Assembly (NCBI GenBank): GCA_031431875.1
Contig: JANPEF010000061.1
Span: forward strand, 15,764 to 79,763
From: Candidatus Eiseniibacteriota bacterium
Lineage (GTDB): Bacteria; Eisenbacteria; RBG-16-71-46; DASYSL01
DNA: 64,000 bases
Reading direction: 5' to 3'
Shown here: one piece after another, positions 9,636 through 33,035 of the stretch
Layout of the letters: every line of letters starts with the position of its first letter
Numbering within the stretch: the first letter of the stretch is position 1
Translations under genes and position numbers: made by a program
The notes under the pieces: model-generated
The model's database searches: none
What the model was told of the DNA's origin: nothing
The model's input: only the letters and a program-made list of their open reading frames with translations

Positions 9636-9851
9636 ATGCGCACCGCAGTCCATGCCTTGCTTGCCGCCGCGCTCTGCCTGTCGGCCTCGCCCGCACTGGT
9701 CAAAGCGGCCGACGGCACGTACGACCTGCGCTGGGACAGCTGCACCGGACCGATCGAACGCTGTCCCACGGTGGACGACCAGAACTCGCTGTACGCCTCC
9801 GTGATCGGGCTGGACCAACCGCATCTCGCCTACCAGGTTCAAGTGATCTAA
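9636..9851 (+). CDS. Small secreted Cys-containing protein (71 aa as annotated); ends at a TAA that is in frame with the following ORF
   Basis: ATG with GAGAGG Shine-Dalgarno; signal peptide MRTAVHALLAAALCLSASPALVKA; TAGACT -10-like hexamer at 9585-9590; lower GC and N/T/S/Q-rich composition, unlike the rest of the window. Confidence 0.45.
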   Translation: MRTAVHALLAAALCLSASPALVKAADGTYDLRWDSCTGPIERCPTVDDQNSLYASVIGLDQPHLAYQVQVI

Positions 9852-9917
9852 GGGAACGCGACGACCAACACCGTTCCCGACGCGTGGCGATTCGATGCGC
9901 AGGGGTGCCAGACCGGC

Positions 9918-10592
9918 GTGCCCCTCTTCACGATCGATCACTTCGCGCCTCCGGCGGTGGCGAAGGCGTGCCCGTCCCTCCAGGGCACCGCGCCGAGCAT
10001 CCAGATCAAGGACGTCAGCTTCGTTCCACCATCGATCCTCCTGCCGCAGACACTCCTGCGCATCACGCTGGCGAACGTGTACAACGGCAACCCACAGACC
10101 GGGGACCCCGCGAAGCGCTACTTCCTCGGGCGATTCCAGTTCGATCACGGGTTCTCGGTGATCGGTCCGACGACTCCGGGTGTCGATTGCAGCGGCTTCG
10201 AGGTTCCGCTCCGGTTCGACACGTACTGCACCAGCTACGTCGACACGCAGGGGATGGAATGGAGCTTCGGCCTCGGGGGCACTGGCACCGTGACCTCGAA
10301 GGGGGTGGAAACCTGCCTCCCGGTCCCGGCCGAGACCTCGACCAGCTCGTGCAGTAGTCCACCGACGGCCCCCGGGGGAGACACTCTCCCGGGGGCCGTT
10401 TCGTCATCGCGCGTTCGGGGGAAGATGACTGCGGCCACCAACCCGGGATGGTCTCAGTTACTCGCCCCCGGAACAGGCACTGCGACCATGAGGCGGACAT
10501 GGTCACACTCGCCTCTTCCAAGCAAGGTGACTGCGACCACCTGGGCTCACCCCCCCTCCGGCCCGATCCCGTGCCGCATCCCAATCTGGTAG
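9918..10592 (+). CDS. Hypothetical Cys/Thr/Ser-rich protein in the same frame as 9636..9851; possibly the 3' part of a disrupted gene or pseudogene
   Basis: Frame identical to 9636 (both 0 mod 3); the intervening translation GNATTNTVPDAWRFDAQGCQTG repeats the upstream motif DGTYDLRWDSCTG; atypical composition; the ORF reads through the second hairpin copy. Confidence 0.3.
   Translation: MPLFTIDHFAPPAVAKACPSLQGTAPSIQIKDVSFVPPSILLPQTLLRITLANVYNGNPQTGDPAKRYFLGRFQFDHGFSVIGPTTPGVDCSGFEVPLRFDTYCTSYVDTQGMEWSFGLGGTGTVTSKGVETCLPVPAETSTSSCSSPPTAPGGDTLPGAVSSSRVRGKMTAATNPGWSQLLAPGTGTATMRRTWSHSPLPSKVTATTWAHPPSGPIPCRIPIW
10372..10416 (+). repeat. Second copy of the GGCCCCCGGG...CCCGGGGGCC-GTTTC hairpin element
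   Basis: GGCCCCCGGGGGAGACACTCTCCCGGGGGCCGTTTCGTCATC; about 85% identical in the stem and 3' flank to the copy at 9512. Confidence 0.4.
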
Positions 10593-10601
10593 ATTCCCCT
10601 C

Positions 10602-11201
10602 GTGAAGGATTTCACGAGCCTCGCCCTCCTTTTCGTCGCCCTCCTCTTCCTCGTCGAGATCGCGCTCCTTGCGCGCTTCCTGCGCGCGCGCGGCCCTGCG
10701 CCCGGCCTTCGCTGGATCCTCGCTCCGCTCGTCGTCACGCTCGCATTCGCGCTGCCCGCCGCGTGGATTGCGCGCGCGGGCGGGCTCGCGCCCGGCCTGC
10801 CCGGAGCCGGCATGCCCTGGGAGGACGTGACCGATGCGACGCCGCGGGCGGAGTCCGCCGCCGCCGGTGAGCGCGCGTACCTCAACCGCTGCGCGCCGTG
10901 TCACCTGCCCGAGGGAAGTGGACTGCCGCCGTCGTATCCGCCACTCGTCGGCAGCGCCGTCGTCGCCGGTCCGGTCGACCTGCACGTCCGCTACGCGCTA
11001 TGGGGCAGTCGCGGCATCGCTCGACCACGCGCCGGTGCGGCGCAGATGCCGGGTTTCCATGGCGCGACCAGCGACGCGGAGCTCGCCGCGATCCTGACGT
11101 GGGAACGGAATGCGTGGGGGCATGACGCGGGGATCGTCCGGCCGTCGGACGTCGCGCGCGGGCGTGCCGCCGGCGCGGCCGAAGGGCTCGACCGCCCGTG
11201 A
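10602..11201 (+). CDS. Membrane-anchored monoheme c-type cytochrome (CxxCH = CAPCH)
   Basis: N-terminal transmembrane helices, CAPCH heme-binding motif, and a Met ligand region further downstream; GTG start 6 nt after a TAGATT hexamer; its stop overlaps the ctaA start (GTGA). Confidence 0.65.
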   Translation: MKDFTSLALLFVALLFLVEIALLARFLRARGPAPGLRWILAPLVVTLAFALPAAWIARAGGLAPGLPGAGMPWEDVTDATPRAESAAAGERAYLNRCAPCHLPEGSGLPPSYPPLVGSAVVAGPVDLHVRYALWGSRGIARPRAGAAQMPGFHGATSDAELAAILTWERNAWGHDAGIVRPSDVARGRAAGAAEGLDRP

Positions 11202-12070
11202 ACACGACGGCGCGCCTGGCGCGCGGCACCGTGCTCGCGACGTTCGCCCTGATCGTGCTGGGCGCGATTGTCCGCTCCACCGGGTCCGGCCTCGCCTGCC
11301 CCGACTGGCCGCTGTGCCACGGGCAGCTGATCCCGCCGTTCCAGCCGCAGGTGCTGCTCGAGTGGGGACACCGCGCGGTCGCGCTGATCGTCAGCCTGTT
11401 GACCGCGGCGCTCGCGGGGCGGATCCTGCTGGTTCCGGACGAGCGGCGGGCATTGGGAGGCCTCGTCGGCCTCGCGCTCGCGCTGCTCGCGATGCAGATC
11501 CTCCTCGGCGCGCTCACCGTGTGGAAGCTGCTGCACTTCTCGGTGGTGACGCTCCACCTGGGGAATGCACTGCTGTTCTTCGCGACGCTGATCGCGATCG
11601 CCGAGCGCGCGGGGCGCGGTGCCGAGGCGGCTTTGGACGCGTCGCCTGGCGACGACCGCAGGCTCTGGTGGATCGCCACACTCGCGACGCTCGCCCAGAT
11701 CCTCCTGGGCGGGCTGGTCAGCACCAATCATGCGGGGCTCGCCTGCCCCGATTTTCCGCTCTGCCACGGTGCGTGGTGGCCGGCGGGGGAAGGACCTCTC
11801 GTGCACCTGCAACTGGCGCATCGCTTCGGGGCGTACGCGCTCGCCGCCTTCCTCGCGTTCGCCTGGTGGCGGTCGCGCGGCGAGGCGAATCCGCACGTGC
11901 GAGCGGGTGCCACGGCGGTGCTCGGGCTGGTGCTCATCCAGATCGTGCTCGGCGCGTTCAACGTGCTGCTCGCGGTCCCCGTGTGGCTGACGGCGGCGCA
12001 TCTGGCCACCGCGACGGCGCTGTTCGCGCTGACCGTGCTGACCGCGCTGCGTGCCGGGCGTTCGTCATGA
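11198..12070 (+). CDS. ctaA: Heme A synthase CtaA (COX15 family)
   Basis: Paired CPDWPLCHG and CPDFPLCHG motifs, multiple transmembrane segments, 290 aa. Confidence 0.8.
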   Translation: MNTTARLARGTVLATFALIVLGAIVRSTGSGLACPDWPLCHGQLIPPFQPQVLLEWGHRAVALIVSLLTAALAGRILLVPDERRALGGLVGLALALLAMQILLGALTVWKLLHFSVVTLHLGNALLFFATLIAIAERAGRGAEAALDASPGDDRRLWWIATLATLAQILLGGLVSTNHAGLACPDFPLCHGAWWPAGEGPLVHLQLAHRFGAYALAAFLAFAWWRSRGEANPHVRAGATAVLGLVLIQIVLGAFNVLLAVPVWLTAAHLATATALFALTVLTALRAGRSS

Positions 12071-13362
12071 GCTTCGCCGTGGCGCGCACCGACCTGCGCA
12101 CGATCGCGCTGGCGTACCTCGAGCTGGCCAAGCCGCGGATCGTGCTGCTCGTGCTGCTGACCGGCGTGCCGGCGCTGCTCATGGCGGCGCGCGGGCTGCC
12201 CGAAGCGACGACCGTGATCGGCGCCATCCTCGGCACCGCGTTGGCAGCAGCCTCGGCGGCGGCGTTCAACCACGTGTTCGATCGCGACATCGATGCCCTG
12301 ATGGTGCGTACGAAGCTGCGCCCGCTGCCGACCGGCGTGCTCACGCCGACGCAGGCGACCGTGTTCGCGATCGGGCTCGGCATCGCCGCCTGGCTGGTGC
12401 TCGACCTCATGACGACCCGGCTGGCCGCGATCATCGGGCTGATCTCGATCTTCTATTACGCGGTGGTCTACACCGTGTGGCTCAAGCGCTCGACGCCGCA
12501 GAACATCGTGATCGGCGGCGCGGCGGGGGCGACCGCCCCGCTCATCGCGTGGGCCGCGGTGACCGGGCGCATCGACCTGCCTGCGGTCCTGCTCGCGGCG
12601 ATCGTCTTTTTCTGGACGCCGCCGCACTTCTGGGCGCTCGCGCTCTATCGCCGCGAGGACTACGCGCGGGCGAACATCCCGATGTTGCCGGTGACGCACG
12701 GGGAGGACGAGACGCGGCGGCAGATCCTGCTCTACACGCTGGGGCTGGTGCCGATCACGCTCGCCCCCGTTGGCATTGGCGCGGCCGGGCCGATCTACGG
12801 CGTACCGGCGCTGATGCTCGGCGCCCTGTTCGCGTGGTACGCGCTGCGGCTGTTCCAGACCAAGGCGACCGCGCGCGCGGTGAAGTTGTTCCGCTTCTCG
12901 ATCCTCTACCTGTTCGTGTTGTTCGTCGCGCTGGGCGTCGATGCCGCGGTCGTGGGCGGGCGCAATCGCGCCGCGGCAGAGCGCACGCGAGCGGCGGCGG
13001 CGGCGGCGGTCGCATCGGTCGAGAACCCGGTTGCGGTGCGGGTGACGGCCGGTGCGACCGGGGCGCTGGCGCTCTCGGTGACCGCGCCGCTCGAGGAGGT
13101 CGCGGTGCGTCGGGGCGGGGAGCAGGAGCGCGTGCTGCGGGTCATCAACGGTGGCTCCGACACGTTGCGGGTCTCCGTGAAGCGGAGGGTCCTTCCGGAG
13201 GTGGCGGCGGCCTTCGTGCGCGATGCGGACGGCGGCGCTCCGCGAGTGATGATCGCGCCGGGGGCAACCGTCGACCTGCCGGTGCGCTTCACGATCGATG
13301 CGGCCCTGCCGCTCGACGTGCCAGTCCTGACCGTGATCTACTCGCTCGATGCCTCGCGCTGA
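12067..13362 (+). CDS. ctaB: Protoheme IX farnesyltransferase CtaB/CyoE with a ~130-aa C-terminal extension
   Basis: ATGA overlap with ctaA; UbiA-family motifs NHVFDRDIDALMVRTKLRPLPTG and YYAVVYTVWLKR; the extra C-terminal region (VGGRNRAAAERTRAAAAAAVASVENP...VIYSLDASR) is not part of the canonical ~300-aa CtaB. Confidence 0.8.
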   Translation: MSFAVARTDLRTIALAYLELAKPRIVLLVLLTGVPALLMAARGLPEATTVIGAILGTALAAASAAAFNHVFDRDIDALMVRTKLRPLPTGVLTPTQATVFAIGLGIAAWLVLDLMTTRLAAIIGLISIFYYAVVYTVWLKRSTPQNIVIGGAAGATAPLIAWAAVTGRIDLPAVLLAAIVFFWTPPHFWALALYRREDYARANIPMLPVTHGEDETRRQILLYTLGLVPITLAPVGIGAAGPIYGVPALMLGALFAWYALRLFQTKATARAVKLFRFSILYLFVLFVALGVDAAVVGGRNRAAAERTRAAAAAAVASVENPVAVRVTAGATGALALSVTAPLEEVAVRRGGEQERVLRVINGGSDTLRVSVKRRVLPEVAAAFVRDADGGAPRVMIAPGATVDLPVRFTIDAALPLDVPVLTVIYSLDASR

Positions 13363-13955
13363 GGCGCTTGCAGCGTCCCCTGCACCCACTTGCGCAGCGC
13401 CACGATTCCGTCGTTGTCCTTGGCCGAGGTCGCGATCACGTCGATCTCCTCGCGCCAGGGCAGGAGCTTGCGCAGCTCGGCCAGCTTGCGCGCGGGGGCG
13501 CTGCGGTTCACGCGGTCGCACTTGGTGAACGCGAGCGCGAACGGCACGTCGTCCTCCAGCAGCCACGACAGCATCTCGAGGTCCGAGTCCTGCCACGGCA
13601 CGCTCACGTCGACCAGCTGGAACACCGCGGCGCGGCGCGACGGATCGCCCAGCAGGTCGCGGGCGGCGCGGGTGAACGTGCGGCGTTCCTTCTCGGGTCC
13701 GGCGGCGTAGCCGTAGCCGGGCAGATCGATCAGGTAGAAAGGCGGCGTCTTGTCCGACTCGAGCTCGAAGTAGACGAGCTGGCGCGTGCGGCCCGGCGTC
13801 TTGCTCGTGCGCGCGATCGCCTGGTTGGCGAAGCGATTGACGAGCGACGACTTGCCCACGTTCGAGCGCCCCGTGAAGGCGATTCCCGGACGCTCGTTCG
13901 GGCATGCGGCGGGGTCGAGAAACGAGCCGAGGAACTTCGTGCGGAGGATGCGCAT
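13338..13955 (-). CDS. engB: Ribosome-biogenesis GTPase EngB (YihA/YsxC)
   Basis: [11 protein letters not shown]...[12 protein letters not shown] (G1), DLPGYG (G3), TKCD (G4); 205 aa; TACCTT hexamer 7 nt upstream of the ATG on the coding strand. Confidence 0.8.
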
Positions 13956-14010
13956 GAAGCCCAAGGTAGCATGCCTTGACACCCGGCGACGGCCCGACGA
14001 ACATGCGCCC

Positions 14011-14523
14011 ATGAACGAGCCGCGCCCCGCCGATGCCGCGCCCGCGCCCCGGGTCGGCGTGATCATGGGCAGCCAGAGTGATCTCGAGACGATGGCGCCC
14101 GCCGTCGAGCTCCTGACCGCGCTTGCCGTGCCGCACGAAGTGCGCATCGTCTCGGCGCACCGCACCCCCGACTGGATGTTCGAGTACGCCTCGACGGCCG
14201 AGGCGCGCGGGCTCGCCGTGATCATCGCCGCCGCAGGCGGCGCGGCCCACCTGCCCGGGATGACCGCGGCGAAGACGATCCTGCCGGTGCTCGGCGTGCC
14301 CGTCGCCGCGACCGCGCTCGGCGGCGTCGACGCGTTCCTCTCCATCGTCCAGATGCCGAAGGGCGTGCCAGTCGGTACGCTTGCCATCGGCGCGCCCGGG
14401 GCGGCAAACGCGGCGCTGCTCGCGGCGCGCATCGTCGCCCTCGGCGATCCGGCGCTGCGCGAAAGACTGCGCGCATGGACCGCGGCTCGACGCGACGAGG
14501 TCCTCGGCGACTCGACGCCGTGA
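14011..14523 (+). CDS. purE: N5-carboxyaminoimidazole ribonucleotide mutase PurE
   Basis: [15 protein letters not shown]...HRTPD...[11 protein letters not shown], classic PurE motifs. Confidence 0.8.
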
Positions 14524-15722
14524 GCGCGGTCCTCGGCATCCTGGGCGGGGGACAGCTCGGGCGCATGACCGCGCTTGCCGCCCGCCCGCTCGGCTTCGCC
14601 GTGCACGTGCTCGATCCCGATCCTTCCTGTGCCGCCGCACCCGTCGTCGAGCGCGTGGTCGCCGCGTCGTTCGACGATGCCGCTGCCGCGGAGGAGCTGG
14701 CGCGCGCGTGCAGCGTCGTCACTCTCGAGATCGAGCAGATTGCGCCGGCCTCGCTGGCCGCGGCGGCGCGGCACGCGCCCGTGCGCCCGGCGCCGGCCGT
14801 GCTGCACGTGGTGCAGGATCGCGTGCGCCAGAAGCAGTGGCTCGCGGCGCAGGGCTTCCCGACGGGGCCGTTCCGTGCGGCTGCCGACGAGGCGGAGTTC
14901 GTCGCGGCGGTGCGCGTGTTCGGCGGTCGGGTCTTTGCCAAGTCGAGCTTCGGCGGTTACGACGGTCGTGGCCAGGCCGCGCTCGACGAGGACGACGATC
15001 GCGCCCATGCCGAGGCCGTCGTCGTCGCGCGGGCGGCGAATGCGCCGGCCGCCGACGCGCGGCTCGACGCGGCGGCGCGCACGGCCTGGCGGGCGGTGGG
15101 GGCGGCGCCGTGCGTGGTCGAGGAGGCGCTCGCGCTCGAGGGCGAGTTGTCGGTACTGGTCGCCCGTGGCGTCGACGGCGCGATCGCGGTCTACCCGCCG
15201 GCGCGCAATCACCACGTCGATCGCATTCTCGCCTGGTCTGAGCTGCCGGGCGATCTGTCGCCGACGCTCGCGGCGCGGGCGCAGGAGCTGGCGGCGGCGA
15301 TCGCGCGCGCGCTGGACGTCGTGGGGCTCCTCTGCGTCGAGTTCTTCCACACGCGCGACGGGCGCCTGCTGGTCAACGAGTTGGCGCCCCGGCCGCACAA
15401 CAGCTACCACGGCAGCGACCTCGCCTGCGTCACGGGCCAGTTCGAGCAGCTGGTCCGGGCGGTGACCGGGCTGCCGCTCGGGGCGGTCGACGTGGTCCGC
15501 CCGGCCGCCATCCACAACCTGCTCGGCGACCTGTGGGCCGACGGCGCCGAGCCCGCGTTCGACCGCGCCCTCGCGATCCCCGGCGTCCGGCTCACGCTCT
15601 ACGGCAAGGGGACGCCACGCCCGGGGCGGAAGATGGGGCACCTGACGGCGACGGCTGCCACGCCGGGGGCGGCCCGGGCACTCGTCGAGCAGGGCTTCGC
15701 CAGCTTGCAGCAGGCCACCTAA
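14520..15722 (+). CDS. purK: N5-carboxyaminoimidazole ribonucleotide synthase PurK (ATP-grasp)
   Basis: GTG start overlapping the purE stop (GTGA); [14 protein letters not shown]-terminus; ATP-grasp body. Confidence 0.8.
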
Positions 15723-15834
15723 GCCCTTCCGGGTTTACGATTTACAGGCCAGCCCGGACGTGCTATTCCCTCGGTGATCCGTTCCCCGCATCCCCAATCG
15801 TGGCGGGCGCTGGCGCCCGCGAGGAGCCCGATTC

Positions 15835-17301
15835 ATGTCCCAGTTCCACCTGACCCCCGAAGGCAAGAAGCTCGTCACCTTCATCCCCGGCGACGGCATC
15901 GGCGCCGAGGTCACCGGCGCCACCCGCCGCATCATCGAGGCGACCGGCGCGGCCGTCACCTGGGAGGACTGCGAGGCCGGGGCGAGCGTGTTCAAGAAGG
16001 GCCTGCCGTCGGGTGTGCCGCAGGAGACGATCGACTCGATCAAGAAGACGAAGGTCGCGCTCAAGGGCCCGCTCGAGACGCCAATCGGCTTCGGCGAGAA
16101 GAGCGCCAATGTCACCCTGCGCAAGTTGTTCGAGACCTACGGCAACATCCGCCCGGTGCGCACCCTGCCCGGCGTGCCGACGCCATTCTCGAACAAGGCC
16201 ATCGACCTGGTGGTCGTGCGCGAGAACGTCGAGGACCTCTACGCCGGCATCGAGTACATGCAGACGCCGGGCGTCGCCGAGGCGCTCAAGCTGATCTCGC
16301 GCAAGGGCTGCGAGAAGATCGTGCGCCTGGGCTTCGAGGTCGCGCGCGCCGAGGGCCGCAAGAAGGTCCATTGCGCGACCAAGTCGAACATCATGAAGAT
16401 GACCGAGGGCACGCTCAAGCGCACGTTCGAGGCGATCGCCCCCGAGTACCCCGAGATCGAGTCGACGCACATCATCGTCGACAACTGCGCCCACCAGCTC
16501 GTGCGCTTCCCGGAATGGTTCGACGTCATCATCATGACCAACATGAACGGCGACATCCTGTCGGACATGACGTCCGGCCTGATCGGCGGGCTCGGCTTTG
16601 CACCGTCGGCGAACCTGGGCACCGACTATGCGATCTTCGAGGCCGTGCACGGCTCGGCGCCGAAGTACACGGGCAAGAACGTGATCAACCCGACGGCCGT
16701 GCTGTTCGCGGGCGTGATGATGCTGCGGCGCCTCGAGGAGTTCGCGGCGGCGGCGGCGATCGAGAACTCCGTGATCGCCGTGCTCGAGGACGGGAAGTTC
16801 CGCACGCGCGACGTCGTCGGCGACGCCGGCTCGGTGAGCACGAGCGACTACACCGATGCGATCATCGCCAACCTGGGGCGCAAGCCGTCGAAGGCGTTCG
16901 TGCGCGAGTACCGGCCGATCAAGATGCCCGACGTGCCCGCCGCGCCTGATTTCGTCAAGGTGAAGGAGCGCATGGTCGCCGGTGCCGACGTCTACGTCGA
17001 GTGGACGAGCTCCGTCGAGACGCTCGGAAAGAGCCTCGAGACCGCGCTCGCCGGCTCGCCCTTCCGGCTGCACATGATCGCGAGTCGCGGCACGAAACTC
17101 TACCCCGGGGTGAGCGCCGTGACCGACACGGTCGACGCGTTCACCGCCCGCTGCATGCGCGCCGACGGGGGCGACACGACCGACGCCGAGATCCTCGACC
17201 TGCTCGCCCGCGTGGGTGCCAGGGCGCCCTGGTCCCACGTCGAGAAGCTGAACGTGTTCGACGGCGCGCTCGGCTACACGAAGGCACAGGGCGAGGATTG
17301 A
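15835..17301 (+). CDS. icd: Isocitrate dehydrogenase (isocitrate/isopropylmalate dehydrogenase family) with a C-terminal extra domain, Thermus-type long form of 488 aa
   Basis: GDGIG, NMNGDILSD and GSAPKYTGKN motifs; GAGGAG Shine-Dalgarno 9 nt upstream; ~130-aa C-terminal extension. Confidence 0.85.
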   Translation: MSQFHLTPEGKKLVTFIPGDGIGAEVTGATRRIIEATGAAVTWEDCEAGASVFKKGLPSGVPQETIDSIKKTKVALKGPLETPIGFGEKSANVTLRKLFETYGNIRPVRTLPGVPTPFSNKAIDLVVVRENVEDLYAGIEYMQTPGVAEALKLISRKGCEKIVRLGFEVARAEGRKKVHCATKSNIMKMTEGTLKRTFEAIAPEYPEIESTHIIVDNCAHQLVRFPEWFDVIIMTNMNGDILSDMTSGLIGGLGFAPSANLGTDYAIFEAVHGSAPKYTGKNVINPTAVLFAGVMMLRRLEEFAAAAAIENSVIAVLEDGKFRTRDVVGDAGSVSTSDYTDAIIANLGRKPSKAFVREYRPIKMPDVPAAPDFVKVKERMVAGADVYVEWTSSVETLGKSLETALAGSPFRLHMIASRGTKLYPGVSAVTDTVDAFTARCMRADGGDTTDAEILDLLARVGARAPWSHVEKLNVFDGALGYTKAQGED

Positions 17302-18434
17302 AACTCTCCGTTCCCCGCGAGATCGCCCCGGGCGAGACGCGCGTCGCGCTCGTGCCCGAGACGCTGGCGCGCCTGATCAAGGCCGGCGCAAGCGTGACCG
17401 TCGAGGCCGGCGCGGGGGAACGCGCGGGCTTCCCGGATGCGGCGTACGCCGCGGCGGGGGCACGCATCGAACCGGACGTGCGCGCGCTGTGGCGCGCTGC
17501 CGACCTGGTGCTCAAGGTCCGCGAGCCTCTCGATCATCCCGGCGCCGGCGCGCACGAGCTGGACCTCGCGCGCGAGGGGTCCATCGTCGTCGGCCTGCTG
17601 CGGCCGGTCGAGAACGAGGCGCTCCTGGCGCGCTACACCGCGCGCCGCGTGACCGCGTTCGCGATGGAGAAGGTGCCGCGCACGTCGCGCGCGCAGAAGA
17701 TGGATGCGCTGTCGGCGATGAGCACGATCGCGGGGTACAAGGCCGTGCTGCTGGGCGCGATGCGGCTGCCGCGCTTCTTTCCGCTCATGATGACCGCGGC
17801 CGGGACGATTCCGCCGGCCCGCGTCCTCATCCTGGGCGCCGGTGTGGCGGGGCTGTCGGCGATCGCAACGGCGCGTCGCCTGGGCGCGGTCGTCGAGGCC
17901 TTCGACGTCCGTCCCGCGGTGCGCGAGGAAGTGCAGAGCCTGGGCGCCACGTTCGTCGGCCCGAGCGGGGACGCGGTCGCGTCGTCGGTGGCCGGCGCCG
18001 GCGGCTCGGGTGCGTACGCCGCCGAGCAGAGCACCGATGACGCGCGTCGCCGCCAGGAGATGCTGGTGCCGCACGTCGCGCAGGCCGACGTCGTGATCGC
18101 GACCGCGCTCGTTCCGGGTCGCCCGGCGCCGCGCCTGGTGACTGCGGCGATGGTCGAGTCCATGAAGCCCGGCGCCGTGATCGTCGACCTGGCCGCCGAG
18201 ACCGGGGGCAATTGCGAGCTCACCCGCGCCGGCGAGGACGTCGTTGCGCACGGCGTGACCATCCTCGGGCCGGTCAACCTGACCGCCACGGTGGCCGGGG
18301 ACGCCAGCCGAATGTATTCGCGCACGATCGCCGCGTTCGTGCTCCACCTGGTCAAGGACGGCGCACTCGCGCCCGACTTCGCGGACGACATCGTGCGCGA
18401 GTCGTGCATCGCCCGCCCGGGGGACGCCGCGTGA
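17298..18434 (+). CDS. pntAA: NAD(P) transhydrogenase alpha subunit part 1 (PntAA, dIII/alanine-dehydrogenase-like)
   Basis: TTG start overlapping the icd stop (TTGA); LKLSVPREIAPGETRVALVPE; Rossmann GAGVAGLSA. Confidence 0.8.
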   Translation: MKLSVPREIAPGETRVALVPETLARLIKAGASVTVEAGAGERAGFPDAAYAAAGARIEPDVRALWRAADLVLKVREPLDHPGAGAHELDLAREGSIVVGLLRPVENEALLARYTARRVTAFAMEKVPRTSRAQKMDALSAMSTIAGYKAVLLGAMRLPRFFPLMMTAAGTIPPARVLILGAGVAGLSAIATARRLGAVVEAFDVRPAVREEVQSLGATFVGPSGDAVASSVAGAGGSGAYAAEQSTDDARRRQEMLVPHVAQADVVIATALVPGRPAPRLVTAAMVESMKPGAVIVDLAAETGGNCELTRAGEDVVAHGVTILGPVNLTATVAGDASRMYSRTIAAFVLHLVKDGALAPDFADDIVRESCIARPGDAA

Positions 18435-25231: not shown

Positions 25232-25265
25232 CTCCGAGTCGAGGCGTCGTCCACGGGAGGTCGGG

Positions 25266-27959
25266 ATGGGAATGACGCATTGCGTTCGTCGTCATCAATC
25301 GTACGTCGCAGTCGCGATCGCCGCGGGTTCGCTCGCGTGGGCCGCGCTCGGCGGGGCGGTCGCAGCGGTGGGCGCACCGGCTGCGGCGCCCGTCGACTCG
25401 GCCGGGACGGTGGGCAGCCGACTGGGCCGCGCTGTCGTGCCGCTGTCGCAGAAGGTCGAACTCCGCCTCGACCCCGCGTCCCCGGACTACAGCGGCTCGA
25501 CCACGATCTCGATCGAGGCAGCCGCGCCGTTCCGTTCGCTGCGCGTGCACGCGAGGGAGCTGTCGGTCGAGACGATCCTGCTCGCGGGCGGCCTCGTGCA
25601 CGTCGCGCCGAAGTGGGCCAGCGAGACGGACGGGACGATCCGTATCACCTTCAGCGAGCCCGTGCCGGCGGGGATCTACCTGCTCACGCTGCGCTTCCGC
25701 AACGACTTCAACACGCAGGCCACGAGCCTGTACCGCCTCAAGGCCGGCGACGACTGGTACTGCTTCACGCAGTTCGAGGCGACCGACGCGCGCGAGGCCT
25801 TCCCGTGCTTCGACGAGCCCGAGTTCAAGATCCCGTGGGACCTCGAGCTGACCATTCCGGGCGGGCACAGCGCGGTCGCGAACACGCCGATCGTCTCGAG
25901 CGCCCCGGCCGGCGACGGTTGGACGAAACACGTGTTCAAGCGCTCGAAGCCCATGCCGACCTACATCCTGGCGATCGCCACCGGGCCGCTCGAGATGACG
26001 CCGATCGAGGGCATGTCGATTCCGGGCAACGTTGTGACGGTGAAGGGGCAGGCGACGCTCACCGCCGAGGCGAGGCGCGTCGCGCCGCCGATCCTCGCCG
26101 CGCTCGAGGCCTACTTCGGGCGCCCGTATCCCTACGAGAAGCTCGACCTGCTCGCGGTGCCCGAGTTCTGGCCCGGCGCCATGGAGAACGCGGGCGCGAT
26201 CACGTTCGCCGATGGCGTGCTGCTGCTCGATGACAAGACGGCGACCGTCTCGATGCGGCGCTCGCTGGCGTCGATCACGGCGCACGAGCTCGCGCACATG
26301 TGGTTCGGTGACCTGGTGACGATGAAGTGGTGGGACGACCTGTGGCTCAACGAGTCGTTCGCCTCGTGGCTGGGCGAGAAGGTGACCCACGGCGTGTACC
26401 CGGAGTTCGGGATCGAGGACCGCCTCGTGCTCGACGCGGACGAAGCGATGCTGGTCGACGGTCGACTGAGCACGCGCGCGGTCCGCCAGCCCGTCAAGAG
26501 CCTCGACAATCTCCTGCAGTCGGCCGATGCCCTTGCATACCAAAAGGGACAGACGGTCCTCGGCATGTTCGAGCAGTGGCTGGGCCCCGACGTGTTCCGG
26601 GCCGGCGTGCGCGACTACATCTCTCGCCATGCGTGGGGGAACGCCGTGGCGGACGACCTGTGGTCGGCGCTGTCGCGCTCGGCGAAGAAGGACGTGGGTG
26701 GCTCGATGGGCACGTTCCTCAACCAGCCCGGGCTCGCGCTCGTCGGGGCCGAGCCGCTGCCGGGCGGCCGGGTGCGCCTCACGCAGTCGCGCTTCCTGCC
26801 GGCCGGAACGGTCGCGCCGACACCCCAGCGCTGGTCGATCCCGGTCACGCTCAAGTATGGCGGGGCGAGCGGGGCGGCGAAGACGAAGAGCGTGCTGCTC
26901 TCCGCGCCGACGCAGGTCGTCACGCTCGAGCCGGGGGTGAAGTGGGTGTACCCGAACGGGCGCGCCTGGGGCTACTACCGCTGGAAGATGCCCGACGCCT
27001 CGATCACCGCGCTGGTCGAGCGGGCCAGCACCTCCCTCGAGTTGCGCGAGCGCATGGAGCTGACCACCAATGCAGCGGCCTTGCTCGACGCCGGTGCGAT
27101 GCCTGGCGACACCTACCTGCGCCTGCTCGAGAAGCTGGCCGCAGACGAGGAGCCCGCCGTGGTCGGCGCGGTGCTCGACGGGATGGAGAAGGTGAAGCAG
27201 ACGTTCATCACGCCCGAGGTCGAGCCCGCCTATGCCGCGTACGTCCAGCGCGCGCTCGCGCCGGCGGTGGATCGCTTCGGCCTGACGAGGCAAGCGGGCG
27301 AGCAGGAGTCGGTGTCGTTCATCCGCGGGCGCCTGCTCGGCATGCTCGCCGACGAGGGTCGCGACCCCCGCGCGCGCGCCTACGCCGACTCGCTGGCGCA
27401 GGCGTACCTGGCCGACGTGACGAGCGTCGATCCGTCGCTTGCGTTCACGTCGCTGCAGGTCGCCGCCATGGACGGGGATCCCGCGCTGTGGGAGACCTAT
27501 CGCACGCGCTTCGAGTCGGCGCCGAACCCCGGCGAGCGGCGCAACTTCCTTGCGGCGCTGGGCTCGTTCCGCTCCCCGCCGCTGCGCCAGAAGTCACTCG
27601 ACTACGCGCTCGCCGGCCCGCTCCGGCCGCAGGAGGTGCTGGCCGTCCCGCGCGCCATGGGCGGCGCCTCCGAGGAGGGCCGGGAAGCGCAGTTCCAGTG
27701 GGCGATGCAGAACTACGATGCGATCATGAAGCGCGTGCCACCCATGTTCGCAGTGTTCATGCCGTTCGTCGGATCCGGCTGTTCCGGCGACCGGCTCACG
27801 GCGACGCAGTCGTTCTTCGCCGATCCGGCGCACGCGCCTCCGGGCACCGAGAAGGAACTGGCAAAGGTGACCGAAACGGTCGAGGACTGCATGAAGCTGC
27901 GGGCGCGCGAAGGTCCGCGCGTGCGCGAGTTCCTGCAGCGAGGTCCGGTTGCGAACTAG
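25266..27959 (+). CDS. pepN: M1-family aminopeptidase N
   Basis: GAMEN exopeptidase motif and HELAHMWFGD-(18)-E zinc site (WLNESFASW); signal peptide; ~897 aa. Confidence 0.85.
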   Translation: MGMTHCVRRHQSYVAVAIAAGSLAWAALGGAVAAVGAPAAAPVDSAGTVGSRLGRAVVPLSQKVELRLDPASPDYSGSTTISIEAAAPFRSLRVHARELSVETILLAGGLVHVAPKWASETDGTIRITFSEPVPAGIYLLTLRFRNDFNTQATSLYRLKAGDDWYCFTQFEATDAREAFPCFDEPEFKIPWDLELTIPGGHSAVANTPIVSSAPAGDGWTKHVFKRSKPMPTYILAIATGPLEMTPIEGMSIPGNVVTVKGQATLTAEARRVAPPILAALEAYFGRPYPYEKLDLLAVPEFWPGAMENAGAITFADGVLLLDDKTATVSMRRSLASITAHELAHMWFGDLVTMKWWDDLWLNESFASWLGEKVTHGVYPEFGIEDRLVLDADEAMLVDGRLSTRAVRQPVKSLDNLLQSADALAYQKGQTVLGMFEQWLGPDVFRAGVRDYISRHAWGNAVADDLWSALSRSAKKDVGGSMGTFLNQPGLALVGAEPLPGGRVRLTQSRFLPAGTVAPTPQRWSIPVTLKYGGASGAAKTKSVLLSAPTQVVTLEPGVKWVYPNGRAWGYYRWKMPDASITALVERASTSLELRERMELTTNAAALLDAGAMPGDTYLRLLEKLAADEEPAVVGAVLDGMEKVKQTFITPEVEPAYAAYVQRALAPAVDRFGLTRQAGEQESVSFIRGRLLGMLADEGRDPRARAYADSLAQAYLADVTSVDPSLAFTSLQVAAMDGDPALWETYRTRFESAPNPGERRNFLAALGSFRSPPLRQKSLDYALAGPLRPQEVLAVPRAMGGASEEGREAQFQWAMQNYDAIMKRVPPMFAVFMPFVGSGCSGDRLTATQSFFADPAHAPPGTEKELAKVTETVEDCMKLRAREGPRVREFLQRGPVAN

Positions 27960-28723
27960 CGGTAGCCAGCCTTGATGCGGCCCCACGTCGCCGGAACGGC
28001 CGGCGTGGGTGTCTCGTAGGTGATGGTGAGCGCGGGGCGGAGTGTGGGATCCGTCGATTCGCGGGAGTCGAACTTCTTGACCGTCTGCGCTATCGCCTCG
28101 TTGCCGCGCAGCAGCCAGCCGTGGTTGCTCGCAGGCTCGTCGAGCCACGCCTGCACGTCGGCGACCAGCCCGGGATTCGACGTCCACACGTAGGTTCCCG
28201 TTGCGTCGACCGCCAGCGTCGCGCTCGCCGCCGCCGCGAAGTCGCCCCCGGCCGCGGCCCAGAGGGATCCCGGGAAGAAGGTGTGCTTCCACGTTGCGTC
28301 GCCGGCCTGTGCCGGCGCGCCGCTGCCACCGGCGATCCCGGCGTCCGAGGCGCCCTCACCCCAGGCGGCGCTCGCGCGGTGCAACCCAACGTTCGCGGCT
28401 CCGGCACTCGTCTGGCTCATGATCAACTCAAGATCGACCGACAGGATCGTCGCGCCGTCGGGAATCGCCGCGGCCACGTTGAACCACAGCAACCCGCGGC
28501 GGATGCTGTTCGTGGCCTGGTTGTTGCGGCCGGCGAAAAAGCTGGTGCCCGCGCCGTTGCTGAGGGATCCAGTAGCGCTCTCGTAGAGCGTATTGTCTTT
28601 CGCCGCGCCGATGACCAGCGTCGTGCCGGCCCGCGCACCCGGAGCGGGAACGAGCAGGGCGACGAGGACGGCGACCAGCCGGGCCGCGGATCGGCCGCCG
28701 CGATGGGCGTGGAACGGGTTCAC
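27956..28723 (-). CDS. Secreted hypothetical protein (beta-rich; possible DNRLRE/choice-of-anchor-like domain, uncertain)
   Basis: GTG start with GAGGAG Shine-Dalgarno 6 nt upstream; signal peptide VNPFHAHRGGRSAARLVAVLVALLVPAPGARA; no catalytic motif recognised. Confidence 0.55.
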   Translation of the reverse strand: MNPFHAHRGGRSAARLVAVLVALLVPAPGARAGTTLVIGAAKDNTLYESATGSLSNGAGTSFFAGRNNQATNSIRRGLLWFNVAAAIPDGATILSVDLELIMSQTSAGAANVGLHRASAAWGEGASDAGIAGGSGAPAQAGDATWKHTFFPGSLWAAAGGDFAAAASATLAVDATGTYVWTSNPGLVADVQAWLDEPASNHGWLLRGNEAIAQTVKKFDSRESTDPTLRPALTITYETPTPAVPATWGRIKAGYR

Positions 28724-28889
28724 GAAATTCTCCTCGAATGGGGTCGCCGGCGACCGATCGGCAGGGGAAGGGCCGACGACGAGTATACAACGCCCCCCCT
28801 TGCGCCCGCACCTGTGGGCGGGGAGAATGCGGCGTCCGGCCGTAGGGCTCGCCGTCCGATCATCCACCCTCCAGCTGTTCTGGGGACCC

Positions 28890-30986
28890 ATGCGCGAAGA
28901 AGACCTGCTCCGCCTCGTCTGGATCACCGATCCGCAGATCGCACCCGCGGGGGATCGCATCGTGTTCGTGCGCGTCATCGTCGACGAGGCGAACGATCGC
29001 TACGCGACCTCCCTGTGGATCGCTGATGCCGCCCTTGGCCGGCCGCGGCCGCTCACCTTCGGGCCCGGCGATGCACAGCCCCGCTGGTCGCCCGACGGCA
29101 CGCGCCTCGCGTTCGTGCGCTCGCCCGAGCCCGGCCAGCCCGCACAGCTGTGGGTGATGCCCATGCGCGGCGGCGGCGAGGCCGTGCGGTTGACCGACCT
29201 GGTGAAGGGCGCGGGATCCCCGGCATGGTCGCCCGACGGCATGCAGATCGCGTTCACCAGCGGCACGAACCCCGAGCTCGACACGCCCGACGCGGAGGCG
29301 AAGAAGCCGAAGAACGCCCCCGGGCGGATCGTCGCGCGGCCCATGGTGAAGCTCGACAACGTGGGTGCGCTCGATCCCGAACACCAGGACCACGTGTGGG
29401 TGGTGGCACTCGCCGTCGACGGCGCCGCCGCTGGAGCGCCGCGCATGCTGACCTGCGGCCGCTTCAACGAGGACGCGCCCGAGTGGTCGCCCGACGGCGC
29501 GGGCGTCTGCTTCGTGAGCGATCGCCGGCTCGCACCGTGGTATGGCCTCGATGATGCGGACGTGTGGTCCGTCGCGGCCGACCGCACGGTCCCGACCGAG
29601 AGCGAGGTCACGCTCGTTGCAGACGTGGCGGGCACCATCGGCCGCTTCACGCTGGGCGCTGACGGTCGCGTGCTCGCGGTGGGGATGCTGACGCAGGAAC
29701 CGCCTCGCTCCTACGACCAGCCCGACGTGTTCGTGTGCGCGCCGCCGTTCCCGCAGCCCACGCCGCACGGGCTCACCCAGGCATACGAGTTCGAGGCGGG
29801 GGACTCGTCGATCTCCTCCGACCAGCACCCGCCCCGGGCGGGCGGCAGCGTTCCGCTGGCGTTCATCGAGGGTGGGGCCGCCGTGCTCACGGTGGTGGGG
29901 CGGCACGGCGCGTGCATCCTGGCGCGCATCGGCGCCGACGGTTCGGTGACCGAGCTCACGCCCGCCGATCGCGAGATCGTCTCGGGCACCGTGTCGGCCG
30001 ACGGGAAGTGCGCCGCGGTGATCGTCGGCTCACCGTCCCGGCCCGGGGTGCTTTGCGCCTGCGACGTGGCGAGCGGCGCGCTGACGCCGTTGTACGACCC
30101 GAACGAGGCACTGTTCACCGAATCGAAGCTGGGGAAGGTCGAGGAGGTCTGGTACCCGTCGTTCGACGGGCAGAAGGTCCAGGGCTGGGTGGTGACGCCG
30201 CCCGGGTTCGATCCCGCGCAGAAGTATCCGCTCGTGCTGCAGATCCACGGCGGTCCGCACGTGGCGTACGGCGTCGGCTTCTTCCACGAATTCCAGGTGC
30301 TCGCCGAGGCCGGCTATGTCGTCCTCTACGTGAACCCGCGTGGCTCGACGACGTACGGGCAGGAGTTCGGCAACGTGATCCAGTTCGAGTATCCAGGCGA
30401 CGACTGGAAGGACCTGATGGCCGGCGTCGACCTGCTGGTCGGCCGCGGCTTCATCGACGCGACGCGGATGGGCGTCACCGGCGGATCGGGCGGGGGGCTC
30501 CTGACCAACTGGACGGTGGTGAACACCGATCGCTTCGCCTGCGCGATCACGCAGCGCTGCGTCGCCGACTGGACGTCGTTCTGGTACGGGGCCGATTTCG
30601 CGCAGTTGACGAACTTCTGGTTCCGCGGCGCGCCCCACGAGGATCCGGCCGACTATGCGCGCCGCTCACCGCTGACGCACGCGGCCCGGGCGAAGACGCC
30701 GCTGCTCGTCGTCCACAGCGAGGACGACTGGCGGACGCCGATCGTTCAGGGGGAGGGGATGTTTCGCGCCATGCTTGCCCAGCGCGTGCCCACGGCGATG
30801 ATCCGCTTCCCGGGCGAGGGCCACGAGCTGTCGCGGAGCGGCGCGCCGTCGCGGCGGGTGCAGAACCAGCGCGTGATGCGCCGCTGGTTCGATCGCTGGC
30901 TCCAGGGCAAGGACGCGCCCGAGTTCGACGATCCGCTGGCCGCGGCACCGGCGCCGCTTCCGGCAGGGGCCCGCGCGAAGGGCTAG
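28890..30986 (+). CDS. S9-family serine peptidase (acylaminoacyl-peptidase-like), second copy, cytoplasmic or unprocessed N-terminus
   Basis: MREEDLLRLVWITDPQIAPAG...; propeller WSPDG repeats; catalytic GGSGGG (Ser), D and H in the C-terminal alpha/beta hydrolase. Confidence 0.8.
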   Translation: MREEDLLRLVWITDPQIAPAGDRIVFVRVIVDEANDRYATSLWIADAALGRPRPLTFGPGDAQPRWSPDGTRLAFVRSPEPGQPAQLWVMPMRGGGEAVRLTDLVKGAGSPAWSPDGMQIAFTSGTNPELDTPDAEAKKPKNAPGRIVARPMVKLDNVGALDPEHQDHVWVVALAVDGAAAGAPRMLTCGRFNEDAPEWSPDGAGVCFVSDRRLAPWYGLDDADVWSVAADRTVPTESEVTLVADVAGTIGRFTLGADGRVLAVGMLTQEPPRSYDQPDVFVCAPPFPQPTPHGLTQAYEFEAGDSSISSDQHPPRAGGSVPLAFIEGGAAVLTVVGRHGACILARIGADGSVTELTPADREIVSGTVSADGKCAAVIVGSPSRPGVLCACDVASGALTPLYDPNEALFTESKLGKVEEVWYPSFDGQKVQGWVVTPPGFDPAQKYPLVLQIHGGPHVAYGVGFFHEFQVLAEAGYVVLYVNPRGSTTYGQEFGNVIQFEYPGDDWKDLMAGVDLLVGRGFIDATRMGVTGGSGGGLLTNWTVVNTDRFACAITQRCVADWTSFWYGADFAQLTNFWFRGAPHEDPADYARRSPLTHAARAKTPLLVVHSEDDWRTPIVQGEGMFRAMLAQRVPTAMIRFPGEGHELSRSGAPSRRVQNQRVMRRWFDRWLQGKDAPEFDDPLAAAPAPLPAGARAKG

Positions 30987-30992
30987 AGGCCG

Positions 30993-31985
30993 CTAGGCAG
31001 CGCGGCGGGCGGGCGTCTCGACGCAGTTGCCGCCGTGCTGCCGCGCATCGCGCAGCACGCGCTCGGTCACCGCCCACAAGGTCTCGAGATCCACGCCGTC
31101 GCCCGGGAACGTGGCGACGCCGAACGTTGCCGACACGGCGCCCGCGGCGTGCGGTGCGAAGGCGTGGGTGGTGAGCGCGCTGCGCATGCGTGCGGCCACT
31201 TCGACCGCACCCTCGCGGCCGGTCTGCGGGAGCACGACCGCCGTCAGGCCGCCCGTGCAGCGGCCGACCAGGTCGATGTCGCGCACGTGCGATCCCAGGA
31301 GTTCCGCGACGTCCGCCAGAGTGCCCGCCGGCCAGGATTCGTCGCCGGCATCCGCCGCCGGATCGACCGCGACGAGGATCAGCGACAACTCCTGCCCGTG
31401 ACGATGGGCTCGCCGGATCTCCTTCTTGAGCGCGGCGCGCAGTGTGCGCTCGCCCACGGCATCCCCGTCGTCGGCCCTGGGTACACGTGCGGCGAGGCGG
31501 CGGCGTTCGAGCGCGGCGCCGAGCCACGCGGCGAGGAGGAGCATCGACTGCATCTCGCCTGCGGTGAAGCGGGCGCGGCCGCGACGGCGATGGACGGCGA
31601 GGTACGAAGGCTCGTGATCGGCCCGCGCGATCGGCACGAACAGCACGGGCCCGGCCTCGACGCCCGGGCAGCCGTCGCCCTCGGCATAGGCCGGTTGTTC
31701 GGACAGGTCGGCGAAGCTGATCGTCCGGGGTTCGGCCGCGAGGGCGCGCAGCGCCTCGCTGCCCTCCGGCGCGAGCGGCAGCACGGCCGGCAGGTCGCCG
31801 CCCGCGTGCAGAACCAGGCGCTCGGTCGGACGGCGCGACGACACGAGGACGACCGCGGCCGCATCGGCGTCGACGAGGGCGCCCGCGGTGCGCAGGGCGC
31901 GCGCGAGCAACTGCCCGCGCGTTCCGGGTGACGCCGGGTTCTCGAGTGCGAGCAGCAGTTCGTGGATCCGGTCGGCCTGGGCCAT
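30993..31985 (-). CDS. GAF-GGDEF diguanylate cyclase family protein (active site looks degenerate)
   Basis: AGGAGG Shine-Dalgarno before ATG 31985; N-terminal GAF-like region, C-terminal GGDEF-fold ...RCTGGLTAVVLPQTG..., but no intact GG(D/E)EF signature is readable by eye. Confidence 0.6.
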   Translation of the reverse strand: MAQADRIHELLLALENPASPGTRGQLLARALRTAGALVDADAAAVVLVSSRRPTERLVLHAGGDLPAVLPLAPEGSEALRALAAEPRTISFADLSEQPAYAEGDGCPGVEAGPVLFVPIARADHEPSYLAVHRRRGRARFTAGEMQSMLLLAAWLGAALERRRLAARVPRADDGDAVGERTLRAALKKEIRRAHRHGQELSLILVAVDPAADAGDESWPAGTLADVAELLGSHVRDIDLVGRCTGGLTAVVLPQTGREGAVEVAARMRSALTTHAFAPHAAGAVSATFGVATFPGDGVDLETLWAVTERVLRDARQHGGNCVETPARRAA

Positions 31986-32324
31986 TGCCCTTCCTCCTTG
32001 GCGACGCCGGACGGTCGGCGTCGAGGCAAGGAAGTGCAACCGCCATGCCAGCGAGGTCAGGTCGGGCACCGAACGCGCAGTGTGTTGTCCCGGTGTGCAT
32101 TGCGCTTGTCGCTTGCGATGTCAGGTGAGCCTGGCGGCTTTGCCACCAGGACAGGTGGCGTCGATTTGGCCACCCGGGGTGGGCGATTGACACCCGGTGC
32201 GGATGCTCCTATGCTCCTTGGGCTCGCCGATTCGAGCCCCCCACGAGCATCGTTCGCAGCACCGGGACTTCGGCCCGGTCCCCTGCCCCAGCCAGCAAAC
32301 TCACGGTTCCGTGGAGGCAGTCCC

Positions 32325-33035
32325 ATGAAGCGCTTGTCATTCCTGTCCGCGTTTGCCCTCTTGGCCGCGCCCGCCCTTGCCTTCGCCGCTCCGAATGCCG
32401 GCACCTACCAGACCACCGACCTCGGCGGCCAGCTCCTCACCGGGCGCGCCTCGTCGCACCGGACGGGGATCAACTCCGGCCTGCCGCATGTCCTGCACTC
32501 GCAGTCGTGGAACGGCTCGACGCTCGGCACGCAGTGGGAGTTGCGCTGCGCGGTCGAGAACGCCGCGTTCGGCATCCAGGACAACCGCGTCAACGGCACC
32601 GGCACCATCGTCTACAGCTCGACCTACACCGGCGGCCAGTTCGAGCTGTACAACACCGGCGGCGCCTGGGGTGACGGCGTGGCCGCGCTCGGAACGACGA
32701 GCATCATCTCGACCGTGCAGTTCGTGAACATCAACAACGTCTCGACGCCGGTCGCGTCGGTCGTCAATGCCAACACCTCGGGTGACTTCGGCGGCGGCTG
32801 CGTCCTCACCTTCGCGATCGCGAATGGCGTCGGCGTGGGCGAGACGACGAGCCTCGACGTTTCGATCCAGAAGCCGGCCGACTACCCGACGTTCCTCGCC
32901 GCCAACTGCGGCCTCGCCTTGCCCAACGAGCAGTTCGGCACGTGGGGCACCATGATCACCGGGACGCTGCGCATCGATTGCTCGGTCGACGCAACGACTT
33001 CGACCTGGGGCGCGGTGAAGAACATCTATCGCTGA
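32325..33035 (+). CDS. Secreted S/T/N/G-rich hypothetical protein, low-GC atypical composition
   Basis: GGAGG Shine-Dalgarno then ATG 32325; signal peptide MKRLSFLSAFALLAAPALAFAAP; ends ...TWGAVKNIYR; followed by a strong terminator. Confidence 0.5.
   Translation: MKRLSFLSAFALLAAPALAFAAPNAGTYQTTDLGGQLLTGRASSHRTGINSGLPHVLHSQSWNGSTLGTQWELRCAVENAAFGIQDNRVNGTGTIVYSSTYTGGQFELYNTGGAWGDGVAALGTTSIISTVQFVNINNVSTPVASVVNANTSGDFGGGCVLTFAIANGVGVGETTSLDVSIQKPADYPTFLAANCGLALPNEQFGTWGTMITGTLRIDCSVDATTSTWGAVKNIYR

Follow-up and report, generated by a model that had tools for sequence, protein, structure and literature searches.

A C-terminal tail shared by unrelated exported proteins of Candidatus Eisenbacteria: a probable and hitherto undescribed signal for protein sorting or anchoring

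Two genes for exported proteins, A (9636..10357, + strand) and B (32325..33035, + strand), lie in a 64,000-nucleotide stretch of a Candidatus Eiseniibacteriota contig (JANPEF010000061.1, positions 15,764 to 79,763; the whole stretch is hereafter the window). An initial annotation had taken them for members of one secreted protein family, and here we describe what they really share, a short C-terminal tail that appears to serve in protein sorting or anchoring and for which we know of no earlier description. When the alignment profiles of both proteins were compared with hhalign, only the last 23 columns aligned (A columns 256-280 with B columns 259-281; probability 92%, E = 5.6e-7), while the globular parts remained unmatched. 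A and B are unrelated Sec-exported domains, and their common part is a modular C-terminal tail of around 20 residues. The idea that the two proteins share something as a class is therefore upheld, the shared item being a tail that had gone unnoticed and that is deleted in the window's copy of A.

The consensus of the module is C-x2-P[TV]P[TV]-x3-[ST]TWGx[ILV]K[AS]LYR-COOH, and it ends at the C-terminus or a few residues from it. All intact members of the A family finish in ...C-x-x-[AT]-P-x3-[ST]TWGx[ILV]KxQYR, at times with one residue more, and all the B-family members of our alignment in ...IDCxVPxxxSTWGxVKxxYR. In B itself the hhalign comparison places the module at 32979..33032 (+; C219-SVDATTS-TWGAVKNIYR236), with W228 and K232 invariant in the family and Y235 conserved in at least 90% of its members. 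A motif scan of the whole window detected the tail at two places only, each right before a stop codon, namely in B and in a third gene, C (27956..28723, - strand). Gene C opens with a GTG at 28723 behind a GAGGAG Shine-Dalgarno sequence and encodes a secreted DNRLRE-domain protein (NF033679, E = 7e-17), unrelated to A and to B, that ends in ...PTPAVPATWGRIKAGYR (TWGRIKAGYR at 27959..27988, -). Its neighbours are a convergent M1 aminopeptidase gene and a divergent S9 peptidase gene. The 64-kb window holds, in all, two intact copies of the tail and a decayed one.

How far does the tail reach? A back-translated pattern, T-W-G-x-[hydrophobic]-K-x-x-Y-R-stop, was searched in one genome per GTDB species and found at no fewer than 118 loci. 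Among the matches listed, 72 loci carried a taxon label: 44 were assigned to Eisenbacteria, 6 to Krumholzibacteriota, 5 to uncultured Fibrobacteraceae, 4 to Latescibacterota, 3 to Gemmatimonadota, 2 each to Poribacteria and Limnocylindria, 1 to Zixibacteria and 5 to five other groups, one each. The matched loci contained, again among the matches listed, at least 131 tailed open reading frames (ORFs) of 120 aa or longer. A simple heuristic recognised a signal peptide in 112 of these 131, and most of the other 19 are cut by the locus ends or have a mis-called start. Once the tail was removed, the 131 ORFs fell into 72 BLAST clusters. Conservation also extends to positions that were not part of the search pattern, with P at -17 and -15, T/V at -16 and -14, S/T at -11, A/S at -4, L at -3 and, in around 60% of the proteins, a Cys at -18 to -20. 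Besides the seeded matches, the motif occurred 26 times without having been seeded by the DNA pattern; 23 of these occurrences lay within 5 residues of a stop codon and 14 had exactly one residue behind Y/F. The tail is thus a module that is strictly C-terminal, conserved at the protein level and present on many unrelated proteins with signal peptides.

Several metagenome-assembled genomes (MAGs) hold three to five tailed genes on different contigs (e.g., binchicken_co165_179, BC1.91 and MAG_MBR_H10.75). Tail-bearing genes also often form tandem paralogous arrays, as seen for three NosD/beta-helix genes at locus L006 (1222-6460) and for A-family genes, of which three stand in a row at L003 (7846-10765) and two at L122 (2713-4257). 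Two Candidatus Poribacteria chromosomes (L005 and L089) encode homologous proteins that end in ...KGKAATTWG[ST]LKKAYR, and L005 encodes a second protein that ends in TTWAGIKAAY; with these cases the tail may reach beyond the phyla of the Fibrobacterota-Chlorobiota-Bacteroidota (FCB) group. On a 3.36-Mb Eisenbacteria contig (L001), the gene directly 5′ of the B orthologue (9129-9947) ends in ...CDPVATEPMSWSAIKAQFGGDSR, a variant with SWS in the place of TWG, F in the place of Y and five extra residues, which shows how much the motif tolerates.

A conserved stretch located just 5′ of the terminators at gene ends could, in principle, be a regulatory, recombination or repeat element of the DNA or RNA, without any signal in the peptide. 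Codon usage within the tail speaks against this: the conserved Gly is written as GGC 68, GGA 28, GGT 23 and GGG 18 times and the Tyr as TAC 88 and TAT 51 times, so that the amino acids are around 95% conserved while third codon positions vary freely. This synonymous variation at conserved residues indicates that it is the peptide, rather than the DNA, that is under selection. Moreover, the flanking 3′ untranslated regions are unrelated, and the stretch always lies in frame with a long ORF that opens with a signal peptide. We consider a nucleotide-level element to be barely credible.

What kind of proteins carry the tail? The Pfam domains of the cargo include lamin-tail (LTD), right-handed beta-helix/NosD, NHL and other propellers, Big_1, Chlamydia PMP repeats, CBM20, thioester (TED), cleaved-adhesin, PPC and matrixin (M10) domains, a set of domains typical of what bacteria secrete or display at their surface. 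The NCBIfam models point to families that are tied elsewhere to other anchors, such as ScyE/ScyF (PEP-CTERM), ExeM (GlyGly-CTERM), choice-of-anchor V and J, together with DNRLRE proteins and rhombosortase- or myxosortase-dependent M36 peptidases. In A, B, C and the 131 tailed ORFs alike, the tail itself falls outside every Pfam and NCBIfam model. Literature searches on the motif and on sorting signals of these phyla retrieved nothing relevant.

The B family provides a direct view of the exchange between the tail and a known signal. A hidden Markov model of the family, searched against 1.84 billion cluster representatives, gave 227 matches, the full-length ones being nearly all 215-262 aa long. 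Of these 227 representatives, the best 150 comprise 107 with the tail at their end and 8, all distant relatives, with PEP-CTERM, which is joined at the same junction behind the last strand (P0175, P0234, P0241, P0242, P0246, P0263, P0269 and P0279). The end of P0263, ...MEITPEPATLGLLAMGGMYVLAKARRRRRRRA, scores 22.3 bits on TIGR02595, for which the cutoff is 16. The 35 others in the best 150 fit neither type and are mostly truncated or frameshifted sequences, with a few variant tails. Because both ends occur within one family and at one junction, the tail and PEP-CTERM are interchangeable on the same domain, and the B domain, which no NCBIfam model describes, behaves as a 'choice-of-anchor' type.

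Small C-terminal sorting signals have been characterised by a list of eight attributes (Haft, 10.1101/2023.06.07.544157), six of which are displayed by the tail. It is C-terminal, even in 23 of the 26 occurrences that had not been seeded. It occurs in several copies per genome (the window, L006 and several MAGs). More than the three near-invariant residues asked for are present (T, W, G, K, Y and R), and most of its carriers (112/131 by the heuristic) have an N-terminal signal peptide. Pairs of carriers are unlike each other outside the signal, as the 72 clusters and the different profiles and predicted folds of A and B illustrate, and homologues of a carrier end in another sorting signal, as do 8 of the 150 B-family representatives.

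On this basis, we favour, with a probability of about 0.6, the reading that the tail is a sorting or anchoring signal that is read by a partner. We infer that it specifies localisation and that the partner is dedicated to it. We interpret the tail as specific to certain lineages, comprising Candidatus Eisenbacteria, Krumholzibacteriota, Latescibacterota, Zixibacteria, some Fibrobacterota and Gemmatimonadota, in which, by analogy, it may fill the place held elsewhere by PEP-CTERM, MYXO-CTERM, GlyGly-CTERM or the C-terminal domains (CTDs) of the type IX secretion system (T9SS). In such a scheme, the cargo would first be exported through Sec and its signal peptide cleaved. The exposed tail would then be recognised by a protein partner in the periplasm or the outer membrane, which would retain the cargo, attach it or translocate it to the cell surface. 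Since the tail has no membrane-spanning part, it would have to be read once Sec has exported the protein, either in the periplasm or at the outer membrane, and no intramembrane enzyme of the sortase type would be expected to act on it in the usual way. The near-invariant W, G, K, Y and R point to a protein rather than a lipid as the partner.

Several observations weigh against this reading. The two remaining attributes of the list are lacking: there is no hydrophobic transmembrane-like segment in the tail, the maximal hydrophobic run within the final 30 residues averaging 3.7 and never exceeding 8 across the 131 proteins, and there is no cluster of two to five basic residues at the end, where the basic residues amount to a Lys at -5 and the terminal Arg. 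Many A-family members carry an extra residue behind YR, and some other proteins up to five, which makes strict recognition of a free carboxylate unlikely. The recurrent non-tail neighbours in the window and in the 121 other loci that were clustered offered no candidate for a dedicated enzyme. As for the distribution, the search pattern favoured Arg codons of the CGN type and a Thr in front of Trp, the taxon labels are those of the MAG submitters, and some of the single hits in other groups may, and probably do, represent mis-binned contigs or chance matches.

The closest comparison is with the tripartite C-terminal signals, i.e., PEP-CTERM/exosortase, LPXTG, GlyGly-CTERM, MYXO-CTERM and PGF-CTERM (Haft et al. 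PMC1569441, PMC3237569, 10.1101/2023.06.07.544157). Like the tail, they are small regions of C-terminal homology found in several copies per genome on many unrelated proteins with signal peptides, and their cargo is of the same kinds (choice-of-anchor, DNRLRE, ScyE/F and M36 proteins); PEP-CTERM even sits on the same B-family domains, where it is directly interchangeable with the tail. In contrast, they possess a transmembrane helix and an Arg cluster, both missing from the tail, and their signature is placed at the start of the signal, whereas that of the tail forms the extreme C-terminus.

The CTDs of T9SS (TIGR04183/PF18962 and type B), which the PorU sortase processes, resemble the tail in being C-terminal signals without a transmembrane segment; they are read in the periplasm of FCB-group bacteria and occur in the same genomes as the tail. 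However, a T9SS CTD is a folded beta-sandwich of 70-100 residues, whereas the tail has around 20 residues and is unstructured but for a short helix. None of the T9SS CTD models matched A, B, C or the 131 tailed ORFs, and in the sample examined the tail and a T9SS CTD were never found on one protein. The window itself encodes two proteins with type-A-like CTDs, one at 6200-7876 (+) that ends in ...GVYFARLVVDGAAIGAARLVLLR and one at 41742-43565 (-) that ends in ...GMYFYRGEVGETRFDAKLVMVR, which indicates that this genome uses T9SS-type signals alongside the tail. Proteins with such CTDs are also the only large group of recurrent neighbours in the window and the 121 other clustered loci, amounting to 35 ORFs in 25 of the latter. 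In addition, genes for PorU-like C25 peptidases stand a few kb from the A-family arrays of L003 (17430-20765) and L122 (1-1527); they match NF033707 (T9SS sortase) with E values of ~1e-35 to 1e-38, below its curated cutoff. They are a possible lead to the machinery, or they may just reflect shared synteny. A PorU-like gene was also sought in the window 5′ of A, where none is present; a 1437-aa ORF (4058-8371, -) was discarded, as it has no hits and the real genes underneath it, on the + strand, are an S9 peptidase gene and the one for the first T9SS-CTD protein.

Taking the comparison one step further, the tail could define a new, non-tripartite class of sorting signal that lacks a transmembrane segment and has its own periplasmic or outer-membrane machinery, either distinct from type IX secretion or an unrecognised branch of it. 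Each genome of Eisenbacteria and of uncultured phyla close to them would then send around a hundred surface proteins along this route, a figure extrapolated from the approximately 30 tails per Mb of the window. We put forward this broader proposal tentatively and give it somewhat less than an even chance.

Could the tail itself be the anchor? As a short helix at the membrane interface, rich in Trp, Tyr, Lys and Arg, it might bind a membrane leaflet or lipopolysaccharide directly, without dedicated machinery. In the AlphaFold2 models of both families, B included, the last ~8 residues form a short helix that is detached from the domain and has a low pLDDT; the composition of the tail (W, I/L/V, K, L, Y and R) is similar to that of known membrane-targeting sequences, and the fact that PEP-CTERM, a membrane-embedded signal, can replace it goes in the same direction. 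Membrane-targeting C-terminal helices, such as those of MinD, FtsA and PBP5/6, are likewise short, aromatic and basic, and placed at the extreme C-terminus of otherwise soluble domains; MinD and FtsA are cytoplasmic, and the helix of PBP5 is longer. Unlike them, the tail is not significantly amphipathic and its conservation is far stricter. Its hydrophobic moment at 100 degrees is 0.45, compared with 0.36 ± 0.17 for shuffled tails, 30% of which reach the observed value, and the moment is equally high at 180 degrees. This result led us to downgrade the idea of direct anchoring. The mean hydrophobicity of the tail is, besides, slightly negative, and lipid binding seldom calls for a sequence as specific as these ten residues, in which W, G, K, Y and R hardly vary. 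Overall, we regard a self-sufficient anchor as unlikely.

A somewhat less probable alternative, which we also rate as unlikely, is that the tail works in assembly, docking its carriers in a dockerin-like way to a common scaffold or surface layer, with the A family as the possible receptor. The predicted structure of A is a cohesin-like beta-sandwich, the A-family genes come in arrays of three (L003) and two (L122), the residues of the tail are highly specific, and enzymes and binding modules (CBM20, peptidases and beta-helix proteins) figure among the cargo. Nevertheless, the tail is present on the A-family proteins themselves and contains no Ca-binding dockerin-like repeat. Cellulosome cohesins are alike in fold to the A domain, but sequence identity is only 4-12%, and the A family gave no hit with Pfam Cohesin (PF00963). 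Ig-like domains of pilins and adhesins score nearly level with cohesins against the A fold, the beta-sandwich topology being common to all of them. We know of no dockerin partner for the A family.

If the preferred reading of a signal recognised by a partner is right and the tail is a surface mark, it would at once open to computation the surface proteome of phyla such as Eisenbacteria, Krumholzibacteriota, Latescibacterota and Zixibacteria, which, to our knowledge, have no or almost no cultured members. A model of the tail would improve the annotation of hundreds of 'hypothetical proteins'. It would also allow the cognate machinery to be found through phylogenetic profiling, the approach by which exosortase, rhombosortase and the myxosortases were all discovered. 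Besides, with a tail that has no transmembrane segment, the range of designs known for C-terminal sorting signals would grow.

Gene A is present in the window as a pseudogene. Its signal peptide, MRTAVHALLAAALCLSASPALVKA (9636..9707, +), has been read from the sequence and corresponds to an equivalent N-terminal hydrophobic segment in all homologues. The gene is interrupted by an in-frame TAA (9849..9851, +) at a position where homologues have L, Y or F. Since homologous proteins match the gene through this codon in a single frame, from 9699 to 10316, the interruption is a plain nonsense substitution, and since the same TAA context recurs, at 99.8-99.9% identity, in the Logan assemblies of two other sequencing runs, SRR20217185 and SRR20217190, it is real in the population and not an assembly error. 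The start and the interruption that had been annotated at first are thereby borne out, but not the end at 10592. A-family homologues are 241-254 aa long, and a terminator-like hairpin (10364..10400, +; -37.9 kcal/mol, z = -4.8) follows a TAG in a different frame (10355-10357). The ancestral gene consequently ended at around 10357, and the extension to 10592 is read-through into the spacer. The hairpin, strong as had been noted, falls inside the longer ORF and not behind it.

A decayed remnant of the tail is left at 10335..10357 (+), in a region where WGx[ILVM]Kxx[YF] appears in no frame. When this region is compared by eye with its counterparts at the 3′ ends of the L003 paralogues, three in number, the tail seems to have been lost as the TWGxIK codons (18 nt) were deleted, about 5 nt inserted and the Tyr codon turned from TAC into TAG. 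Apart from its own ORF (P0121), the gene has 18 homologues with 38-53% identity, and the family extends to more distant tail-bearing relatives such as a protein of L030 (hhalign probability 98.5%). C34, C90 and C184 are invariant in the alignment and C110 nearly so. Gene A is a dead copy of a family usually found as tandem arrays.

Directly 5′ of A lie two tandem genes for 188-aa PpiC-type peptidyl-prolyl isomerases (8371-8937 and 8934-9500, +), which overlap by 4 nt and whose products both have lipobox-like N-termini (...AIGC and ...VVGC); the A-family array of L003 is likewise flanked by rotamase genes. Past the second PpiC gene, a further terminator-like hairpin (9522..9553, +; -33.6 kcal/mol, z = -3.8) shares with the one at 10364-10400 the 14-mer CCGGGGGCCGTTTC, which covers stem and tail sequence and occurs twice in the whole window compared with 0.1 times expected by chance. 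This repetition may be a trace of a tandem duplication of the A cassette, or a small repeat element.

Gene B, on the contrary, is intact and encodes, as first annotated, a protein of 236 aa. It begins with the signal peptide MKRLSFLSAFALLAAPALAFA (32325..32387, +), also a sequence reading, which is kept in the B-family alignment; Sec-type signal peptides were thus rightly assigned to both A and B, and the homologues of both retain them. The gene is preceded by a promoter-like site, TTGACA-17-TATGCT (32187..32215, +), assigned by its 10/12 match to the consensus only, and by a GGAGG Shine-Dalgarno sequence (32313..32317, +). Behind it, a hairpin resembling an intrinsic terminator (33069..33094, +; -37.4 kcal/mol, z = -4.0) is followed by the T-run TGTGTTTTGG. 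The predicted fold is an 8-stranded beta-barrel to which the tail is appended. Four Cys residues (C75, C159, C195 and C219) are invariant, so that the conserved cysteines claimed at the outset are real in both families. We found 313 database homologues, all of ~236 aa and 58-88% identical, the named ones coming from Candidatus Eisenbacteria MAGs. B is a native, strongly conserved and probably well-expressed exported barrel; its high conservation, together with its own promoter-like site and strong terminator, suggests an abundant structural or surface protein.

Small 8-stranded barrels include both soluble proteins (DUF3224-like) and outer-membrane proteins (OmpA, OmpW and NspA). An integral barrel of the OmpA/OmpW/OmpX type would be expected to have a lipid-facing hydrophobic belt and a C-terminal beta-signal ending in an aromatic residue. 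The model of B ends in YR behind a flexible linker and not in a terminal beta-strand, and the four conserved Cys and the PEP-CTERM relatives of B would favour a soluble exported domain over one embedded in the outer membrane. Neither A nor B nor their homologues produced an annotation match for their domains in Pfam, NCBIfam or the PDB sequences, and for B this includes the small-barrel families. The initial description of both as exported proteins of unknown function holds, their place being probably the surface or elsewhere outside the cytoplasm.

Why did the two genes look like one foreign family? According to that view, A and B would be copies of a horizontally acquired or fast-evolving secreted family, one of which arrived with an IS110 element. 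Both proteins are indeed exported, contain Cys and are rich in Ser, Thr, Asn and Gly, although these residues make up 39% of B and only 28% of A, compared with 17-22% of non-exported neighbours. An IS110-family transposase gene (33331..34515, -; PF01548 + PF02371) does adjoin B, with a gap of ~235 nt from its terminator. GC content is also modestly lower in A (65.8%) and B (66.8%) than in the window as a whole (70.9%, standard deviation 3.1% in 700-nt windows). However, this deficit falls in codon positions 1 and 2, and GC at third positions (GC3) is 0.86 in A and 0.93 in B, compared with 0.84-0.94 in the neighbours and 0.78 in the transposase gene. The low GC is therefore attributable to a beta-rich, polar amino-acid composition and not to a foreign origin, codon usage is not atypical, and horizontal transfer was rejected. 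Homology of A and B outside the tail was rejected as well, both by hhalign and by BLASTP, whose pairwise alignment is insignificant (E = 8.4); their predicted folds differ. No method aligned the short motifs that had been thought to be shared (SIQIK/SIQKP and LRI...C), and SIQKP falls at a variable position of the B family, with xITKPADYP as the consensus. Nor is B fast-evolving, given its constant length and high identity across the 313 homologues, and A- and B-family genes alike occur widely in this one phylum. The insignificant alignment, and the conservation of B together with its normal codon usage, are two outcomes that the initial annotation itself had named as refuting its view. A single acquired family is, in our opinion, very improbable.

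The insertion sequence (IS) is likewise separate from B. In a relative (L101), B and its upstream region are kept at 80% DNA identity up to the stop codon, while the 3′ flank differs and holds no IS. A functional link between IS110 and B was discarded, as the element lies past the terminator of B and is missing from this relative. Apart from IS110, no element near B seems to be a recent acquisition, and there is no shared synteny around B among L001, L002 and L101. What seemed to be a foreign gene family next to an IS is, in this window, a pair of native genes, one of them dead. Beyond the IS110 lie an ORF for an anti-sigma-like protein and a gene for an extracytoplasmic function (ECF) sigma factor (34601-36204, -). 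Elsewhere in the window, a single ORF of 626 aa (2301-4181, -) matches HpnC (squalene synthase) and HpnD (presqualene diphosphate synthase) in tandem, and is apparently an HpnC-HpnD fusion for hopanoid or squalene synthesis.

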